64,000 nt of DNA, taken from assembly GCA_030828405.1 (NCBI GenBank), contig JAURCP010000006.1:12015-76014 (forward strand). Direction: 5' to 3'. A program made the position numbers and the translations under genes. Positions 1,171-9,587 of the stretch are shown one piece after another. The notes below the pieces were generated by a model. The model did no database searches, had not been told where the DNA came from, and saw only the letters and a program-made list of their open reading frames with translations. The stretch comes from Thermoplasmatota archaeon (GTDB lineage Archaea; Thermoplasmatota; Poseidoniia; Poseidoniales; Thalassarchaeaceae). Within the stretch, counting starts at the first letter, position 1, and each line of letters opens with the position of its first letter.

Positions 1171-2259
1171 GTGAGTGAACCTTCAGTTACTGTCATTATT
1201 CCCAGTGTTAGGAATCATGAGGAGTTAGATATTGTACTAAAAGGTCTGAAAAAACAGACTTATAGTGGACAAATCGAAACAGTAGTTGTTGGTCCTACAA
1301 ATGATCCAGGAAAGGACATCAGTCTAGAGAACAATATTCGATTTATTGATGACGAAGGTTCGAGAACTAGAGCTGATGCATGTAACATAGCAATAAAATC
1401 TACAAGTTCGGAACTGATACTATTCACTGATGACGATGTTATTGTTCCAAAAGATTGGGTTAAGAAATTAGTTTCATGGTTTGAAGATGAGGAAGTGAGT
1501 GGAGTTGGAGGACCTAATTTTGCTCCAGTTGATGAATCCACAATGTGGCAGCAAGTAATTGATGTTGCATTCTGTAGTACAATATTTACTGCTGGAACTA
1601 ATTATGGTAAAGTAGGTAAGAAAGACCTAGATGAAGTCAATCAACTTCCTGGAGTTAATTGTGCTTACAGGCGCTCTGTTCTAGAAGAAGTAAATGGATT
1701 TGATGAAGGCGCTATTGGAGCGGAAGATGTTATGCTTGATCATAGAATCAGGATGACTGGAAAGAAACTATGGACAGATAGAACAGCCATTATGTGGCAT
1801 AGAAGAAGAGACCTTTCAAGAGTTAAGAAACAAATTAGGAACTATGGACTTGTGAGAACTTTAGCCAGTCATCAATACCCTGAACTAAGAGCACCTACAC
1901 ATACTGCAGTTGCATTTTTCCCCCCAATAGTAATAGCGGCATTTGGATTCTTTTTTTGGGGCCTAGCAAATGGGGGATTGGCATGGCCTGATTTCTGGGA
2001 TATTCGATTATCTACAGTACCTATGGGCCTACCTAGATTAGGAGTTCATACATTACCAACACTAATTCTATTGTATAATATATTAGCATGGTATGGATCT
2101 TGGAAAGGCAATTCCCCCAGTAAATCAAAGAAGACCATCTTTCTTTCTTCAATAGCAACTTACACTTTACATTGGAACTATGGAATGGGAGTATTAACCG
2201 GTTGGATTAGAATCTTAAGAGGGAATTCGGGACTTCAGATTGATGATAGGAATAGATAA
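1171..2259 (+). CDS. GT2 family glycosyltransferase with C-terminal TM helices
   Basis: SVTVIIP start, FTDDD (DxD), GFDE...AEDV, hydrophobic C-terminus. Confidence 0.88.
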   Translation: MSEPSVTVIIPSVRNHEELDIVLKGLKKQTYSGQIETVVVGPTNDPGKDISLENNIRFIDDEGSRTRADACNIAIKSTSSELILFTDDDVIVPKDWVKKLVSWFEDEEVSGVGGPNFAPVDESTMWQQVIDVAFCSTIFTAGTNYGKVGKKDLDEVNQLPGVNCAYRRSVLEEVNGFDEGAIGAEDVMLDHRIRMTGKKLWTDRTAIMWHRRRDLSRVKKQIRNYGLVRTLASHQYPELRAPTHTAVAFFPPIVIAAFGFFFWGLANGGLAWPDFWDIRLSTVPMGLPRLGVHTLPTLILLYNILAWYGSWKGNSPSKSKKTIFLSSIATYTLHWNYGMGVLTGWIRILRGNSGLQIDDRNR

Positions 2260-2307
2260 TTTATATTATTGATTTTTCAAAAATCAAGTTATTGATATAA
2301 CCAGAAC

Positions 2308-3468
2308 GTGATTCTGAAGTGTATGCATCCGGAACAACTACGCAGGGTTATACTAAGGATTGTAACATCTCTTATGAATCTCATAATTGGCCCTTCAGGT
2401 GCTTGGTATGCTCTTGGATTAGAAGGTCTGTGCTTGTACATTATCGTTAATGTATTTACTAAATCTGTAGTTGCAGAGATTTCGGCTCTAAACGAAAAGA
2501 TATCTAGATTGGGATATAGAATATCTCCTATCTTTCTGATTTCTGCAGGTTTCTTGCCACTTATCTCATCCAACTGGTATACTTTTGTGATTCTTATACC
2601 TATTCTATTGGCAACATATGTGGGATTATTTTGGACAGGCTTTCATGGAATTAGAAAACTAAGAACTTTAAAAACTGAAAGAGAATCAGTAAGATCCTTT
2701 CAACATTATGAAATTGTAAGTACTTTATTGGCTGCTTTTTTAGTTTTATTTCTTAAACAAGTTGAGATGGTAAGTTATGCTGGATATATAGGCTCGATTC
2801 TAGCTTTCATTGCATTGGTAATTCCAATGAAAATAGGTGAAGGGACAATCAGAATATCAAGTGGCGATATGTTAAATCAAGAAGTAATACTTGCAAGATT
2901 AACCACAGGTTCTTTCGGAATCATTGGTTTTTCGACAGTTTGGTGTATGAGGATAATTGCTTTGGAATACGCAGGAATTTCAGGGATTGCGGGGATGGTG
3001 GCTCTTTCCAGTTTAGGAGGACATATTATATCTAATTTGAATGATAAAAAACTGAGGCCAGAATCGGCTGATAATAAAAACTGGATATGGGGGACTAACA
3101 TAGTAATAACTGGTATTCTTATTATGATTGGAAGTTTAATTTTAAGGCTTGAAGAATTTTTCCTAACTGGTTATCTGATTACAAGAGGGGGCACGTCTGG
3201 TATTTTACATCCTTTAGAAGTAAGAATTTCTGGAGAATTATTAATCGGAGATGGAGGTGAAATTGGGCTAAGAGAGAGAATAAAATTCAGAACACAAACA
3301 AAAATTATGTTTTTTTATATTATCTGCAATTATATGTTGTACAATATAATTGGAGAAATTAATCTTATTTTATTAGTCTTATTGCCTTTGATAACATCAT
3401 TATATTGTTGTAAGTTAAATTTGGAGATTATTGATTACTTAAAGACTCACCAACGGGTGCAAGGTTGA
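2308..3468 (+). CDS. Multi-pass membrane protein, possibly MFS-like transporter
   Basis: About 10-12 hydrophobic segments in two halves with a central hydrophilic loop; start could be ATG 2323. Confidence 0.55.
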   Translation: MILKCMHPEQLRRVILRIVTSLMNLIIGPSGAWYALGLEGLCLYIIVNVFTKSVVAEISALNEKISRLGYRISPIFLISAGFLPLISSNWYTFVILIPILLATYVGLFWTGFHGIRKLRTLKTERESVRSFQHYEIVSTLLAAFLVLFLKQVEMVSYAGYIGSILAFIALVIPMKIGEGTIRISSGDMLNQEVILARLTTGSFGIIGFSTVWCMRIIALEYAGISGIAGMVALSSLGGHIISNLNDKKLRPESADNKNWIWGTNIVITGILIMIGSLILRLEEFFLTGYLITRGGTSGILHPLEVRISGELLIGDGGEIGLRERIKFRTQTKIMFFYIICNYMLYNIIGEINLILLVLLPLITSLYCCKLNLEIIDYLKTHQRVQG

Positions 3469-5251
3469 GTTTAGATTTAGATAATTCCAATTTAATTTTA
3501 TTTTTTCTAGAATAAAGAAATAAACTCTGAGATTTAGGTTTATTTAATCCAGTAAATTCGCCAAACATTTCTCCTACTAGATGTAACTTAATTTTGTTAT
3601 TCTTACCCAATTCTTCAATATCTAAAATCCAACTAAATATCAAACTTCGAAAAATATTATCGTTACTTTTTGGATTCTCAAGAGCGGTATCTATCGAGAG
3701 TTCGGCTCTTAAAAGAAAATTATCAATCTCTGATAGGAATATTTTCATTTCTCCTAAAATTTCTTTAGATAATTCGTTTTCTAATTCAGAGCGATCTTCT
3801 GTCCAGATACTAGATCTGAATGTTGTATTCTGATAATTTTCTTTCCAGTTCTTATTTGTTATCCTTGAATCACTTAAGAATGAATTAATCTTCATGAAAA
3901 GTTGTGCTATTATTACTGATATATTGATTATTCCTGTGTAATTATTCTTACTTTCTTGAATATTTAACGCTGATTTAGCGAATCTTATTTCTTTTAATAC
4001 ACTCTCAATTATACTGCTAGTTTCATTTCGAACTATAGATTCCCTGAAACCTGAATCTTTAGGAGATGAACGATTGAAATCCAATCTGACAACTTTCATT
4101 GTTGTAGTTTTACAATAGAAATTTGTAAGATTCTTTGCTTCTGAACCAATGGTTGTAGATAAAAACGATTTAATAATCAGCCTCTTTTCTTCTTTTTTAT
4201 CTGTTTTTATCCTGTTTGAGGGGTTATTTTGATGTTCCAATAACACATCGAGACAATTCAGAATATATCCAGATTTCTTTTCTGATGACTCAAGATTTTT
4301 TCTTTCTTTCATTTCCATGTTTTCAAAATATTTATTTAAATCAGGATTTAGTGTCTTTCTAAAATCCCTAATTTTCTCTTCTATTTCATGTACTGGTTGA
4401 AGCCTAATTTTCTTATTTTTCCTCAATACCCATAATGACCACCAATAGTAGGCCTTGGCCCATACAGAATCATCTTCACGACATAATTCATCCATTTTTT
4501 TAATATAAGAAAATATATTCTTATAATCAGTTTCCCAATTATTACCAGATGGAATTAACCTTCTATTATTAGTCAAGTGGTATTGCATTAAAATTAACAT
4601 ATCAAGATGCTCAGTTTTTGTAGCACTATTATTGCGTATAGCTTTAAACCCATTTTTACTTTTCAAATTATCAAACTTAAACCAAGCAGCATCTAAAATT
4701 TTGTCAATTAATTCAAGAACTTCGGGGTTCTCAGAAAAACCCACACGAATTCTTCTGACCTGTTGTATTTTCGCTACAATCAGATATGTTGCGCAAATAT
4801 CTTTTGTTTCAACACCGTGTAATTTTTGTGTAATTTTCGATCTGAAATAATAACTATTGATTAAATCCTGTAAAGAATCTCTAGTGTAAGGATCATCTAT
4901 TTGCTGAAACCATTCATTCAAACATGGCCTTAATAATTTGTAACTACCCTCTGGATGGATTAAGTTATGTGATTGACCTATTAATCCCGATATATCACGT
5001 CTATTCCTTGAAGTGAAATTTATTATCAGCATTGAATCCTCAACACCGAAGTAATCTACCATGATTTTAAAGCTCTCTAAGGCTGATAATTTTGTTTTAG
5101 GTTCAGTGGTTAAATCTGAAAATGATTTATTATATTGCTCTGCAGCCTTAGCCCAATAAAGAATTAAATCTTTACTAAATTTATCTCTTTTCTCATTGTT
5201 AGAATAATGGAGATTACAGAAATCTTCACAACTTAACCTCTTGGACACCAT
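3428..5251 (-). CDS. Hypothetical 607-aa protein, predicted helical and Lys/Asn-rich
   Basis: Long ORF in very AT-rich DNA; TTTATAAG TATA-like box about 25 nt upstream; no motif recognised. Confidence 0.7.
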   Translation of the reverse strand: MVSKRLSCEDFCNLHYSNNEKRDKFSKDLILYWAKAAEQYNKSFSDLTTEPKTKLSALESFKIMVDYFGVEDSMLIINFTSRNRRDISGLIGQSHNLIHPEGSYKLLRPCLNEWFQQIDDPYTRDSLQDLINSYYFRSKITQKLHGVETKDICATYLIVAKIQQVRRIRVGFSENPEVLELIDKILDAAWFKFDNLKSKNGFKAIRNNSATKTEHLDMLILMQYHLTNNRRLIPSGNNWETDYKNIFSYIKKMDELCREDDSVWAKAYYWWSLWVLRKNKKIRLQPVHEIEEKIRDFRKTLNPDLNKYFENMEMKERKNLESSEKKSGYILNCLDVLLEHQNNPSNRIKTDKKEEKRLIIKSFLSTTIGSEAKNLTNFYCKTTTMKVVRLDFNRSSPKDSGFRESIVRNETSSIIESVLKEIRFAKSALNIQESKNNYTGIINISVIIAQLFMKINSFLSDSRITNKNWKENYQNTTFRSSIWTEDRSELENELSKEILGEMKIFLSEIDNFLLRAELSIDTALENPKSNDNIFRSLIFSWILDIEELGKNNKIKLHLVGEMFGEFTGLNKPKSQSLFLYSRKNKIKLELSKSKLNLAPVGESLSNQ

Positions 5252-5272
5252 AGCTGTACGTAATAATTAATA

Positions 5273-5280
5273 CTTATAAA
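5273..5280 (-). promoter_or_regulatory. Putative TATA box for the leaderless 607-aa gene
   Basis: TTTATAAG on the minus strand 22-29 nt upstream of ATG 5251. Confidence 0.4.
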
Positions 5281-5459
5281 TGTTAATATTTATCACCTCA
5301 AATTGAATAAAAATATAAAAAAGATTAATAATAAATAGTTATTTTTAGGCGATAAATATGCCATTTGAGAAATAATTGTTTAAAGTTGTTTTTATAAAAT
5401 TGAATAATATAAAAAATCATTGGGCATATATAGGGCCGTACCGTATTATAGTATGTAGT

Positions 5460-5617
5460 GCACCCCGGCATTCGTTTCACAAAAATGTGGGGGGAAGGGC
5501 AGAAACTGCTTCACCACTCCCATGAGTGGAGATGGAGTAGTTTATGACGCCAAATTGGTGAAAGAAAAAGGATAACGTAAAACTCTAGAGGGTGTAAGAA
5601 ATGACCACCTCTAGTTT
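5460..5617 (+). ncRNA. Putative structured leader RNA of the peptide/Ubl operon
   Basis: GC-richer patch in an AT-rich spacer; hairpin 5503-5543 (AAACTGCTTCA/TGGAGTAGTTT with 2 G-U pairs, inner CCACTC/GAGTGG) and hairpin 5585-5614 (CTAGAGG..CCTCTAG); ATATATA box near 5425. Confidence 0.4.
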
Positions 5618-5653
5618 CAATATGAATAATAAATTATAAAAAAAAAGGAGATA

Positions 5654-5746
5654 ATGAATATGGGATTTCTAAAATGGCTTTTACTCGGATCAGGTGCTGC
5701 TTACTTTGAACACACAGTAAGCGGTGACGATGACGATGATTGTTAA
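5654..5746 (+). CDS. Small peptide 1 (30 aa) MNMGFLKWLLLGSGAAYFEHTVSGDDDDDC
   Basis: Translated by hand; AAGGAG SD upstream; same architecture as peptides 2 and 3; alternative start ATG 5660. Confidence 0.65.
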   Translation: MNMGFLKWLLLGSGAAYFEHTVSGDDDDDC

Positions 5747-5840
5747 CGTAAAAATAAATAAAAAATGACTTTCTAAATGAATAGGAATTTAGAGTTCGCA
5801 TCTCGGACACAGAGATAAAAATACAAGGAGTGTGATAAAA

Positions 5841-5963
5841 ATGGGTTTGTTTAGAGCATTGTTCTGGACGGGAGCTACAATAGCGACTGGAGGATTGGCG
5901 CTTGCTTTGCTTCCAAACGACTGGGACGGTATAGACGGATATGACGGTGGCTGTGACGAATAA
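5841..5963 (+). CDS. Small peptide 2 (40 aa) MGLFRALFWTGATIATGGLALALLPNDWDGIDGYDGGCDE
   Basis: Translated by hand; ACAAGGAGTGTGATA SD block upstream; hydrophobic Gly-rich core and acidic tail. Confidence 0.7.
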   Translation: MGLFRALFWTGATIATGGLALALLPNDWDGIDGYDGGCDE

Positions 5964-6069
5964 TCGCCACATACACTGTTTCGCAAATGCGATGACTTGC
6001 AGGATGAATATGGATCTTGCCCCCGTGCCTCGGGTACAGAGGCGACACAAACAAGGAGCGTGATATGTT

Positions 6070-6186
6070 ATGGGATTGCTAAAAGCAATCGTAGGCGGAA
6101 CTGTTGGTTTGGTCGTGGGCACAATGACTTGTGCACCAATCACTGGAATGATTGGTGGTGCATTTGTAGCTCAAGACTGGGAATAG
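6070..6186 (+). CDS. Small peptide 3 (38 aa) MGLLKAIVGGTVGLVVGTMTCAPITGMIGGAFVAQDWE
   Basis: Translated by hand; ACAAGGAGCGTGATA SD block upstream (14/15 identical to that of peptide 2); glycine-zipper-like. Confidence 0.7.
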   Translation: MGLLKAIVGGTVGLVVGTMTCAPITGMIGGAFVAQDWE

Positions 6187-6281
6187 TTCAATGATTACAT
6201 GTGTAAATGTTGGCATGATAATGACATTTGAGAAGGTGCAAGACCTGGAAAAAAATATGAAGAAGGAAAGGAGGTAACGTA

Positions 6282-6491
6282 ATGGGAAACATAACGACAA
6301 AAGTCGAAATTGCTGACCATACGGGGCACACCACCGCTTTATTGACTCAGAGAGAGACTGTTGATCTCGTATCTGACAATGAGCGTTGGGTTTTCGCTGG
6401 AGGACAAATGATTGAGCCAGAAGAATTGGCTGAAGCAGATTGGTCTACAGTTGGAACCGTGAGAGTGATGCCGCGTATTGTGTTCGGTTGA
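6282..6491 (+). CDS. Ubiquitin-like (beta-grasp, SAMP/ThiS-like) small protein ending in Gly
   Basis: 69 aa, strong GGAGGT SD, beta-grasp-like pattern (WVFAGGQMI...TVRVMPRIVFG), C-terminal Gly; directly upstream of JAB and E1 genes. Confidence 0.7.
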   Translation: MGNITTKVEIADHTGHTTALLTQRETVDLVSDNERWVFAGGQMIEPEELAEADWSTVGTVRVMPRIVFG

Positions 6492-6583
6492 TTGGCTGAT
6501 TATTTGCTCGAAAGAGCCCGGATTAACGTAAGTCAAGATAGGGTATACTCTATGTTGATGCAAAATAAAAAGGAGAAAATAAA

Positions 6584-7087
6584 ATGGAAACAAAACAAAT
6601 AAATAATGAAAAAATAATAGAAAATGAAATAGATTGGAAACAACACATACGAGATGTGCATAATGATATGGCAGATGATATAGAATATCTCTTCCCTAAC
6701 AATTCCACTGAAGCCTTTATGACAGCAATATGGAAAATGTCTGTTGACTTATTAGAAAGGATAGAAGTGATGGTCATCGTCGATAATAAAGATGATTTGT
6801 ATATCAGTAGCGGCACACCATCGTTAGTCTCGTTCAAAGATCATGAGGATGAATTAAAAATTGGAGATAAAATGAAGTTGCCACTGAAATGTTGCATCCA
6901 TACACACCCTTCAGGTAAAGCATACTTTAGCGATACTGATTGGAATACAATTAACACATGGAAGAGCGATATTGAATCATGCATTGTACTAGGTAAAAAT
7001 GAATATTTAGCATATAATCCTAAATCTAAATTAGCTAAAATGGTTCACTATGGGCTTCTTGAGAACAATTTGAGAGGTGAGCAATAA
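6584..7087 (+). CDS. JAB/JAMM (MPN+) metallopeptidase
   Basis: Intact E...HxH-x7-S-x2-D motif: IEVMV...HTHPSGKAYFSDTD. Confidence 0.88.
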   Translation: METKQINNEKIIENEIDWKQHIRDVHNDMADDIEYLFPNNSTEAFMTAIWKMSVDLLERIEVMVIVDNKDDLYISSGTPSLVSFKDHEDELKIGDKMKLPLKCCIHTHPSGKAYFSDTDWNTINTWKSDIESCIVLGKNEYLAYNPKSKLAKMVHYGLLENNLRGEQ

Positions 7088-7311
7088 TGATTGAGGATTT
7101 AGTTATGAAAGATGATATTAGAATGATTATTGAATTAATAGAAGATAAGGGGTATGATTTAGATGAGGAAACAATTTCCTCATTAACAAAATATATTGAA
7201 ACAAATTTATCTTCATTGTGCAGAATCAATGAAATTTTAACTGGTATTACTGCTTACAAGAATCTTATCAAACAGGAAGAAGAAAAAATCGAAAGTTTAG
7301 GTGGTGTTTAA
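7087..7311 (+). CDS. Small hypothetical helical protein in the Ubl operon
   Basis: TAATG coupling to JAB; GAGGTGA SD. Confidence 0.7.
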   Translation: MIEDLVMKDDIRMIIELIEDKGYDLDEETISSLTKYIETNLSSLCRINEILTGITAYKNLIKQEEEKIESLGGV

Positions 7312-8076
7312 ATGGATATTAACGAAGAAGAATATACGCCAGAGAGAAAGAATGGAATTTTCAGATTTAGTATTCCTAATTTAGATGCACACAATAAATC
7401 ACTTGAATGGATTGAGTCTGAGAGGAAAAGAATGGGGGCGGAAATTGATTGTATGTTAGAGGATGGATACGACTCAAGTAGGAAATGTCATATTTATGTC
7501 AATGGGAGAGAGTCTGGAATTAATTATAGATTGACATTATCTTTTGAATCTAAAATTGCAAATCTATTATCTAAAAGAATTAATGAAGTTGAATTGAGTG
7601 ATAGAAATCTAAAATCAATTTTATTCACATTTCAAAAATTGATTCATTTCGAAACACATTGGTATGATCATTCGGAAGGGCGCTGGCAGCATATTTGCTT
7701 AGATGTGAAACCTTCTGTTAATCATCCATTTTGGCCAGGAGACCATATTGTTTCTGTAATGAATTGTTTGTCTGAAGACATGACTTCAGTACTTGATAGA
7801 GATATGAAAACTTTAAGAAAAGCAATGACTAAAGCACTTGTAGTCAGTTGGTTCCAAGGCGATAATTCAGATATTATGGGATTTAATAAGGTAAGTCAAT
7901 ATGTAGAGTGGTTAATTCAATTAGAAGAAACAGATAGTGAATTTTCATTTGCAAATAAGAGAGATTTGATTTTAAAAAATATAAAAAATGATTGGGGATA
8001 TTGGGTAGAATCACAAAAAACAAAGCAAATGAAGTTATATGAAAACGTGTTTTCTAGTTTGGAGGAATATCAATGA
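7312..8076 (+). CDS. Hypothetical protein, candidate E2-equivalent
   Basis: Lies between JAB and E1 and abuts its neighbours; HICLD (Cys129) resembles the E2 ICL active-site motif; function inferred. Confidence 0.45.
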   Translation: MDINEEEYTPERKNGIFRFSIPNLDAHNKSLEWIESERKRMGAEIDCMLEDGYDSSRKCHIYVNGRESGINYRLTLSFESKIANLLSKRINEVELSDRNLKSILFTFQKLIHFETHWYDHSEGRWQHICLDVKPSVNHPFWPGDHIVSVMNCLSEDMTSVLDRDMKTLRKAMTKALVVSWFQGDNSDIMGFNKVSQYVEWLIQLEETDSEFSFANKRDLILKNIKNDWGYWVESQKTKQMKLYENVFSSLEEYQ

Positions 8077-8744
8077 AAGATGTACTGGATATAGCAATAG
8101 TTGGAGTTGGAGGGATTGGTTCGAACCTCGCATCATTAATTGTGCCATCTCTATCTCAAGGAGATTTATCACAGAGATTTTCAAAAATAAATATCAATCT
8201 ATATGATTCAGATGAAGTCGAAGAAGAAAATATATTTCATCAGAGATTTAATCAATCAAATATCGGTGAAACAAAAGTTTTGGCTACAAAGAAAAACTTA
8301 TCATCTTTTGAGCATGATAAATTAGAAATCGTCCCACATGGAAAGGATGTTCGAGAGAAAGAAGATATTGAAGATAATGACCTAATAGTGGTTTGTGTAG
8401 ATTCTTCAGATGCTAGGATAGTAGTTCATTCAACAAACTCAAAATGGTTAGATCTAAGATGTAGAGGAGATAATTTCATGAGTATAGATTATACTACAAA
8501 GAAAAATATTATCAAATCAATTACCGATATCGACCAAAAACCCGGTTCTTGTCAGTATGAGGGAGCTTTAGAATCAGGTAATATTCAATTTGGTTTCATG
8601 TACGCTGCATCCTTTGGGGCTCAATGGGTGATACAAAACCTTAGAGGAGAAAATGAAGGAAATAATGTGTTGATGCCTTATCCAAGATCAGAAAGTATAA
8701 CATTTGGGACATTAGGTAATTTTGAGAAAGAGGAGGGAAGTTAA
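8073..8744 (+). CDS. ThiF/MoeB/E1-like adenylyltransferase
   Basis: GVGGIGS, DSDEVEEENIFHQ, KV, VCVDS motifs; GSCQ candidate catalytic Cys; no CxxC zinc motifs. Confidence 0.9.
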   Translation: MKDVLDIAIVGVGGIGSNLASLIVPSLSQGDLSQRFSKININLYDSDEVEEENIFHQRFNQSNIGETKVLATKKNLSSFEHDKLEIVPHGKDVREKEDIEDNDLIVVCVDSSDARIVVHSTNSKWLDLRCRGDNFMSIDYTTKKNIIKSITDIDQKPGSCQYEGALESGNIQFGFMYAASFGAQWVIQNLRGENEGNNVLMPYPRSESITFGTLGNFEKEEGS

Positions 8745-8896
8745 TGTCTTGGATAGTTAGGTGTGCATTTTGTGATGAGAAAATTACTATTGGTAAAAAT
8801 CAGTTCAAGAAAGACAAAAATCCATTAACTGAAGAAAGTGAATATGTATGTGCTCATTGTTATCAATCTTTTATTGGCGATCTAGACTCTTATTAA
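8744..8896 (+). CDS. 50-aa zinc-finger protein (CAFC-x25-CAHC), not in ORF track
   Basis: MSWIVRCAFCDEKITIGKNQFKKDKNPLTEESEYVCAHCYQSFIGDLDSY; TAATG overlap with the E1 stop; GGAGG SD. Confidence 0.75.
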   Translation: MSWIVRCAFCDEKITIGKNQFKKDKNPLTEESEYVCAHCYQSFIGDLDSY

Positions 8897-9587
8897 CGTC
8901 GAAAGTTCTCATCTGATCTACAGTCCAATTCTTGGTCCTAGGCCTCCAGAAAATAATAGTAAATACTCCAATAAATAAACCGCCGAAGATAAGATTAAGC
9001 CATCCCTCTGAAATATATCCAGGACTAGCATTAAAGCTTGCCCAAATAAATGATGGAATAATTCCAAATATTAATGAGATAATTAATTCTTCAGATAATA
9101 ACTTATATTTATCAGGTGAGATTGGTAATTTTGGTGCTGTATTCTCAAAATTATTTGAGTTTTTTCTTCGAACTACTCTAAAGAAGTCACAATTTTCTCC
9201 CTTAGGAATCAAAGAAGGATTAGGAGTTCCTGAAACCCATTTTTTTGAAACTTTCATTAACCAATTATCCTCTATAAAGGGCCTACCATCACAATATTTC
9301 GACCAATAAGAACCTCGAATTCTATCTGATAACTCCTCAACTTCATCATTCCCAGAAATCAGACCACTATCCATTGCAAGAGTCCACTCAGATTCTGAGG
9401 CTACATGGCAGTTTTCATTTCGGAGAATAGTTTTCATGGTTCCAGAATCTACTGGCAGATAAGATATTTCAAAATCATAATCAATTTTGACTTCATGCCT
9501 AGGACCGACTCCTCCAAAAAGTATTGAACGATTATCTGAACCAATGAATACTTTTCCTGGATAGACAGTTACCCATTGAATTTCCAA
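8871..9587 (-). CDS. Membrane protein with degenerate FGE/SUMF1-like N-terminal domain
   Basis: PGKVFIGS...PRHEVKI...SESEW resemble the FGE-sulfatase domain; two C-terminal TM helices. Confidence 0.5.
   Translation of the reverse strand: MEIQWVTVYPGKVFIGSDNRSILFGGVGPRHEVKIDYDFEISYLPVDSGTMKTILRNENCHVASESEWTLAMDSGLISGNDEVEELSDRIRGSYWSKYCDGRPFIEDNWLMKVSKKWVSGTPNPSLIPKGENCDFFRVVRRKNSNNFENTAPKLPISPDKYKLLSEELIISLIFGIIPSFIWASFNASPGYISEGWLNLIFGGLFIGVFTIIFWRPRTKNWTVDQMRTFDVNKSLDRQ

Follow-up and report, generated by a model that had tools for sequence, protein, structure and literature searches.

A 64,000-nt stretch of DNA from a member of the Poseidoniales (assembly GCA_030828405.1, contig JAURCP010000006.1, positions 12,015-76,014 of the forward strand; Thermoplasmatota, Poseidoniales, Thalassarchaeaceae), here called the window, carries a compact operon for a small ubiquitin-like modifier (Ubl) and candidate enzymes for its attachment and removal. 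The Poseidoniales, or Marine Group II, are abundant ocean archaea. The operon comprises + strand genes for the Ubl (69 aa), a JAB/JAMM metallopeptidase (167 aa), a 74-aa protein, a 254-aa candidate conjugating (E2-like) protein, a minimal activating enzyme (E1) of the ThiF family (223 aa) and a 50-aa protein with four cysteines. An initial annotation had described these six + strand genes, and all are present at those places with the lengths and motifs it gave; neighbours among the last five either abut or share 1-4 nt, and the strong Shine-Dalgarno (SD) sequence it saw before each gene corresponds to matches of 5-8 nt. As a six-gene unit its description needs amendment: three small peptide genes upstream and an RNA hairpin had been overlooked, and the zinc finger is optional. 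That annotation had also named co-occurrence of the genes elsewhere as a test, and the same operon is present in 20 metagenome loci and in one further genome, G007. These and the window make up the 22 island loci compared below, counts from which are not independent since several loci are near-identical strains. More widely, we surveyed 201 genomes of the order and, as an outgroup, 237 genomes of the same phylum that fall in other families.

The Ubl (6282..6491, + strand) ends in RIVFG, that is, in a single free glycine (Gly69) rather than GG. Its model, with a predicted local distance difference test (pLDDT) score of 84, shows the strand-strand-helix-strand-strand order of a beta-grasp, and nearly all rows of a Foldseek search with this model were ubiquitin-type chains (best E 0.012), which bears out the earlier description of a Gly-terminated, beta-grasp-like protein. 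A wide fold search (VIA) tied BilA, SUMO-type, PB1, MoaD and SAMP1 chains at Z 4.5-5.3; the beta-grasp fold itself we take as settled by the model, with the fold searches leaving the ubiquitin and MoaD/SAMP subtypes undivided. When the Ubl profile was compared with the PDB, ubiquitin, and not ThiS/MoaD, appeared among the 60 best rows (single-unit E 0.2-0.8), and the 69-aa protein had no match to the ThiS Pfam family (PF02597). All 20 island copies of the Ubl end in the same free Gly. Among 120 listed homologues, the C-terminal Gly motif was kept in 112, in 102 of them as GG; 51 of 60 Ubl units end in GG, 20 units being internal in tandems or fusions, and most relatives carry GG plus one or two residues. 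The Ubl alignment (A6) holds 55 rows, picked from intact homologues.

JAB (6584..7087, + strand) is a predicted de-conjugase, matching Prok-JAB with E 2e-5, a profile score of 24.8 bits that lies just under the cut-off of 25. Its site (H106-x-H108-x7-S116-x2-D119, with an upstream Glu61), which had been annotated as intact, is so both in the window and in all 22 island loci. Because the island Ubl already ends in a free Gly and needs no trimming, and yet the JAB site is intact, this JAB appears to be kept for de-conjugation. The 74-aa protein (7087..7311, + strand; pN/pS, the ratio of nonsynonymous to synonymous polymorphism, 0.36) is probably helical, and its homology to the 78-aa partner found at other loci is unsupported (probability 4%). 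As it ends in GGV we considered it as a second Ubl, an idea rejected on finding that the GGV codons are the ribosome-binding site of the next gene. Nothing convincing was found for the 69-, 74- and 254-aa proteins in Pfam, NCBIfam, PADLOC or PHROGs. Across the island loci JAB was found in 22, the 74-aa gene in 21, the Ubl in 20 and the E1 in 19, losses of the last three falling mostly at contig ends; the 254-aa gene was also in all 22, as follows from its use as the query. Values of pN/pS for the core genes were 0.13-0.36.

The E1 (8073..8744, + strand) matches ThiF with E 2e-13 and has a Ser-Cys160-Gln motif and no zinc motifs. Its ATP-site residues and the crossover-loop Cys160 are invariant; across the family SCQ was found in 54 of 56 members and CxxC in none. 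An E1 match was found in 39 of 61 relatives. In the E1 tree the island sequences form one clade (100/99), whose sister row sits on a long branch, and the rest of the tree groups largely by genus and family. The last gene (8744..8896, + strand; pN/pS 0.30) encodes a zinc-ribbon protein with the pattern C7xxC10-x25-C36xxC39. The CxxC-x25-CxxC protein is thus present here as the initial annotation had it, but as an optional operon member, found in five of the 19 E1-holding island loci (one of the remaining 14 stops short of where the gene would lie). The possibility of a split E1, with the 50-aa protein supplying its zinc element, was rejected, given that CxxC occurs in 0 of 56 E1s and that the gene is not shown in 14 of 19 loci.

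The 254-aa protein (7312..8076, + strand; model pLDDT 88.7) has an alpha/beta domain at about residues 25-160, containing Cys129 in the motif HICLD, and a helical C-terminal part. A profile search of 1.84 billion representatives with this family gave 59 hits, and in 55 aligned rows C129, D144, L153 and D156 are the four invariant residues. The family is homologous (probability 96.9%, E 2e-10) to longer Cys-domain proteins of 350-800 aa, many with N-terminal Cys pairs; the Cys is invariant in 21 rows of the longer family too, with the two families only about 20% identical. Residues 25-160 of the model match RWD domains at Z 5.2-6.2 in the wide fold search, and true E2s somewhat lower: Ube2w at Z 4.5 (104 aligned residues, root-mean-square deviation, rmsd, 4.1) and Ubc13 at Z 4.1-4.5. 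A second-look comparison returned UBC or RWD chains in 26 of 50 rows (Z 3.9-5.5). Residues 3-115 of Ubc13 align to 22-159 of the model, placing Cys129 30 residues before the end of the aligned range; Cys87 of Ubc13, which we take to be its catalytic residue, lies 28 before. The E2 candidacy proposed in the initial annotation gains from the invariant Cys129 and from a Ubl fusion described below, and is held back by fold scores of only Z 4-6 and the lack of a profile match; UQ_con and Prok-E2 profiles matched 0 of 55 members of the 254-aa family and 0 of 16 in a second set. We think that this protein probably has an E2-type function, as a candidate and not a proven enzyme. A search for canonical UBC proteins was negative in five of five genomes, but also silent in every control genome.

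The Ubl was found in 111 of the 201 genomes of the order and in none of the 237 outgroup genomes. Longer Cys-domain proteins occur in 118 of the 201, mostly in two to five copies, and the 254-aa type is strong in seven. Counting both Cys-domain types, 110 genomes have the Ubl and a Cys-domain protein, one the Ubl only, 10 a Cys-domain protein only and 80 neither, numbers that are not independent because the genomes are kin. Many genomes have Ubl genes of two to four tandem units, each ending in GG, and in many the Ubl is unlinked from a conserved cluster of E1, JAB and the 78-aa gene. The existence of fusions, Ubl-Ubl-E1 in two genomes (G206 and G140) and Ubl-254aa in a third (G202), ties the parts of the system together. 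The operon in the window is therefore not a mere island oddity, but one mobile version of a system found order-wide in the Poseidoniales.

Two observations on the Cys-domain genes stand apart from these counts. In the Ubl cluster of one genus (g4), a TFIIB paralogue and an AAA ATPase lie between Cys-domain genes (L079 2333-4820, L142 4070-6517). A compact Cys domain in the first of these loci (L079 5551-5871) resembled, in language-model features only (0.88, 209 shared features), 116-aa proteins that stand alone in bacteria and tailed phages, a cluster that a profile search did not reach; leads from the language-model atlas, which include Nitrososphaerota clusters, were all below 0.9.

We propose, with a probability of about two in three (0.68), that the operon encodes a reversible Ubl conjugation pathway that works without a ligase (E3), using a thioester relay from E1 to E2 and reversal by JAB. 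The E1 would adenylate Gly69 of the beta-grasp Ubl and then carry it on its own Cys160, from which it would pass to Cys129 of the 254-aa protein for attachment to targets without an E3; JAB would take it off again and, in relatives, would release single units from tandem poly-Ubl and from Ubl fusions as well. The extra domains of the E2-like paralogues likely determine which targets are chosen. The genes, modelled folds, invariant residues, fusions, co-occurrence and island presence or absence are observed, and from these we infer each of the chemical steps. A dedicated Ubl-E1-JAB conjugation system had been suggested in the initial annotation, and the Ubl fold, the invariant Cys, the fusions, the co-occurrence and the separate existence of a housekeeping set of MoaD, MoeB and MoaE all speak for it.

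Besides the kinship of the surveyed genomes, several observations weigh against this proposal. The Ubl fold search gave no match with E below 0.001 and did not separate ubiquitin from MoaD/SAMP types, and no Lys is conserved in more than half of the Ubl family. For the 254-aa model, no fold match reaches Z 8 or a Foldseek E of 0.001, and true E2s score level with CapZ, frataxin and Vif, all lying at Z 4.3-4.7. Profiles from Pfam, PHROG and the PDB give no support for an E2, and the register between Cys129 and Ubc13 comes from range ends and not from residue pairs. In 41 Ubl loci, which are not a random sample, a Cys-domain gene lies within 6 kb in only 20 (some of the loci being cut by contig ends), and an E1 in 25. 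In a rival scheme the E1 tags targets alone, as in SAMP/UbaA, with the 254-aa protein a substrate or a non-catalytic RWD-type adaptor: RWD domains without catalytic function give the best fold matches to residues 25-160 of that protein (Knl1, Z 5.5-6.0; GCN2, 4.8; the ELF domain of FANCL, 5.2), and many E1-JAB loci have no adjacent Cys-domain gene. An adaptor or substrate would not readily account for a Cys that is invariant across such distant families, for the fusion of Ubl to a Cys domain or for the near-perfect co-occurrence of the two, and we judge E1-only tagging unlikely.

Two other readings seem to us less probable still. MccB and PaaA are ThiF-family enzymes that modify peptides, and the locus might by that precedent be a cluster for a peptide antibiotic of the ribosomally synthesized and post-translationally modified (RiPP) type, its E1 acting on the small peptides and a membrane protein exporting them. 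Three peptide genes are indeed under purifying selection, with one placed between Ubl and JAB in four loci, and a multi-pass membrane gene is found in 16 of 22; the same E1 clade nonetheless occurs order-wide without peptides and fused to Ubl, and the 223-aa E1 has no N-terminal extension for a peptide-binding domain, so that we hold this reading improbable. The Ubl could instead be a sulfur carrier, thiocarboxylated for an unlinked pathway and trimmed or recycled by JAB. MoaD and TtuB chains are among its fold matches (Z 4.8 and 4.4), and JAB plus ThiS-like operons have been described in sulfur pathways (PMC1779556). Sulfur transfer is made very unlikely by the separate presence of MoaD/ThiS, MoeB and MoaE genes in five of five genomes, two of them without this E1; in the source genome the ThiS-family gene is on another contig (C62). 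The profile evidence given above, with ubiquitin found and no ThiS match, points the same way, and, as the initial annotation had stated, no sulfur-transfer gene family was matched in the operon by Pfam or NCBIfam scans. A search for ThiG gave partial barrel matches only and was uninformative.

The proposed relay resembles several known systems and, by the features tested, is none of Bil, Bub, PRTRC, SAMP or the Caldiarchaeum/Asgard type. Bil likewise has Ubl, a Cys-type E2, JAB and E1 in one operon with no E3 (PMC10557695), a likeness that depends on the E2 call for the 254-aa protein, and BilA is among the top Ubl fold matches (8tyz_B, Z 5.1, rmsd 2.7, 61 aligned), tied with others. BilD, however, has inactive and active adenylation domains (IAD, AAD), a CYS domain and a four-Cys zinc site (PMC10557695), whereas the E1 here is a single domain without the IAD-AAD-CYS architecture or zinc site; the Bil E2 has a conserved adjacent His, while no invariant or near-invariant His was found near Cys129 in 55 rows. 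The system here is, moreover, archaeal and order-wide with several E2-like paralogues, and no Bil model matched in PADLOC 2023. Bub shares a minimal E1 (bioRxiv 10.1101/2024.11.21.623953), tandem Ubl (one to three domains in Bub), a Ubl-E2 fusion and an E1/JAB fusion, these last three being seen here in relatives and not in the window. Bub differs in using Tyr in its E1 and Ser in its E2, in place of the invariant Cys160 and Cys129, in having BubE/DUF6527, for which there was no match among 10 window proteins scanned, and in its JAB/E1 fusion, the order of which in relatives here is E1-JAB.

The link to PRTRC is its ThiF model, TIGR03736, which the E1 matches better than any other in NCBIfam (E 1e-12), with a score of 47.9 bits where the cut-off is 144.75; the remaining PRTRC models matched none of seven proteins scanned. 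The Caldiarchaeum/Asgard systems are archaeal and combine Ubl, E1, E2 and a JAMM that trims pro-Ubl (PMC5654768), but with a RING E3 and canonical components, unlike the E2 candidate here, which lacks a UQ_con match, and the optional 50-aa protein, which has four Cys only and no RING match. SAMP/UbaA shares a small archaeal Ubl, a ThiF/MoeB-type E1 and a JAMM de-conjugase; SAMPs belong to the ThiS/MoaD family and are shared with sulfur transfer (PMC2948915), in contrast to the separate, order-restricted Ubl family here, with its own E1 and Cys-domain partner and no PF02597 match. By analogy, we propose a system that works like Bil and Bub without their defining residues and domains. We found no description of it in this lineage in a literature search that left most subscription papers outside, and archaeal members could be listed in the operon tables that supplement the Bil, Bub and 2006 papers.

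If correct, this would be archaeal E1-E2 tagging outside the Aigarchaeota and Asgard lineages, found in ocean archaea that are abundant and relying on a minimal E1 together with a family of E2-like proteins that current profile libraries miss. Eukaryotic polyubiquitin would have a parallel in the tandem poly-Ubl genes, which lie at a locus separate from that of the enzymes. The five core proteins are small and can be produced in E. coli, which opens the cascade to direct testing although the host is known here from genomes alone.

The operon lies in a strain-variable island of 6.7 kb (2250..8940), between a gene for a GT2 glycosyltransferase and one for a 238-aa protein. Its description as an accessory island in the initial annotation is directly supported by empty sites and by base composition (G+C 0.329 inside, 0.373 outside). 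Window positions 2249 and 8941 are joined directly in contigs of two runs from a single study, and the assembly that holds the window also carries the empty allele, on a short contig (C28). We fetched 13 regions of the genus around the right-hand flanking gene; in 10 of the 11 that show both flanks these abut, and the other holds two unrelated genes. The flanking gene at 8871-9587 shares just 72% identity with its empty-site counterpart, and since the other flank genes are at 95-99%, its divergence suggests that the island entered by recombination that swapped out this gene. The island version would be a self-contained copy of the system, passing from strain to strain together with small membrane peptides and a membrane protein.

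Two forms of the left part of the island were found, seven loci having a T7-type RNA polymerase (PF00940) with one membrane gene and seven, this window included, a gene for a 607-aa protein with another membrane gene; no locus has both forms. The 607-aa gene (3428..5251, - strand) occupies the slot of the polymerase in the sister islands, with no similarity to it and no family match in Pfam, NCBIfam, PADLOC or PHROGs; its relatives are 24-89% identical, and it could be a regulator of its island form. The accompanying gene (2308..3468, + strand), found in 7 of 22 island loci, encodes a multi-pass membrane protein of about 386 aa (start uncertain) with about seven hydrophobic segments and no Pfam match.

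The polymerase scored above the cut-off in 12 of the 201 genomes of the order; this genome, 81% complete, yielded none. Two of the polymerase islands (L031 of G007, and L084) have, between polymerase and cassette and immediately before the membrane gene, three to four copies of a repeat of about 20 nt, which to our eye resembles an SP6-type promoter and was not found in the island of this window. Dependence of the system on the polymerase is accordingly not obligatory. Among six polymerase loci fetched with at least 16 kb of DNA, the Ubl gene was not seen in three (L129, L136 and L137); polymerase loci with the system are those of G007 and G076, both among the six, and of G162, on a short contig. 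In the last two, from two other genera, the polymerase gene is directly upstream of Cys-domain and Ubl genes on the same strand (L135 8965-13423 in G076; L131 135-3815 in G162). In another genus, a homologue of the second small peptide described next is near a polymerase gene (L132 7678-7797 in G122), with no Ubl gene on that 9-kb contig.

Upstream of the Ubl are three small peptide genes on the + strand, all with ribosome-binding sites (a 6-nt SD match for the first) and with pN/pS (0.09-0.42) comparable to the core genes. The first (5660..5746, 28 aa; 7 of 22 island loci, pN/pS 0.42) has an amphipathic start and an Asp-rich tail ending in Cys, the second (5841..5963, 40 aa; 17 of 22, pN/pS 0.39) one hydrophobic segment and an acidic, Cys-containing tail, and the third (6070..6186, 38 aa; 15 of 22, two as frame variants, pN/pS 0.09) a glycine-rich hydrophobic segment.

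The initial annotation had raised an antiviral or stress-related role. Only strain variability, low G+C and analogy with Bil suggest a part in conflict with viruses, in which the peptides would be candidate effectors or targets; this is our leading guess as to function, and a tentative one. Against it, PADLOC models fit nothing here beyond generic E1 domains, inheritance of the order-wide copies looks vertical, and viral contigs yielded no relative of the Ubl, on which ground we also rejected a viral origin. Because the copies found across the order have the look of long-term residents, the family as a whole may serve regulation, with the island version alone a conflict system. A fuller picture, which we regard as speculative and rather unlikely as a whole, is that the Poseidoniales have a complete Ubl cascade of their own, with polyubiquitin-style precursors and an expanded, undescribed E2-type family that itself chooses targets; mobile islands would add membrane peptides and, in the sister islands, a T7-type RNA polymerase of their own, the whole serving as an antiviral response that can be induced.

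Two non-coding structures are predicted on the + strand. Upstream of the peptide genes and conserved in the 607-aa form of the island is a leader with two stems (5450..5556, folding z -3.06), in which 4 of 23 pairs change on two sides in five loci, with a covariation term of 0; no Rfam match was found, and the base of the second stem looks to us like a kink-turn. After the Ubl gene comes a conserved 12-bp hairpin (6532..6559), a predicted transcript end or processing site. Across 17 variants 95.6% of its cells are paired, a fraction modest against chance (reached by 18 of 500 shuffles); five pairs change on one side and one on both, and G-U changes favour the + strand. A motif at 6519-6555 was considered as a T7-type promoter and set aside, as its variation fits an RNA hairpin. 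Contigs from RNA runs of two studies span the peptides and Ubl and end at 6526 and 6542, which hints weakly at a shorter transcript, one that would give more modifier than enzymes; island contigs were found in four RNA runs, two of which hold very long contigs, probably DNA, so that their presence is not proof of transcription. An 8-mer, chosen post hoc, occurs at 5573, 5744, 6275 and 6524, four copies against 0.009 expected. In nine loci (L083 2413-2778 and eight others) Ubl and JAB are separated by the gene for a 121-aa MORN-repeat protein with C-terminal Cys pairs, and this insert has a hairpin copy of its own.

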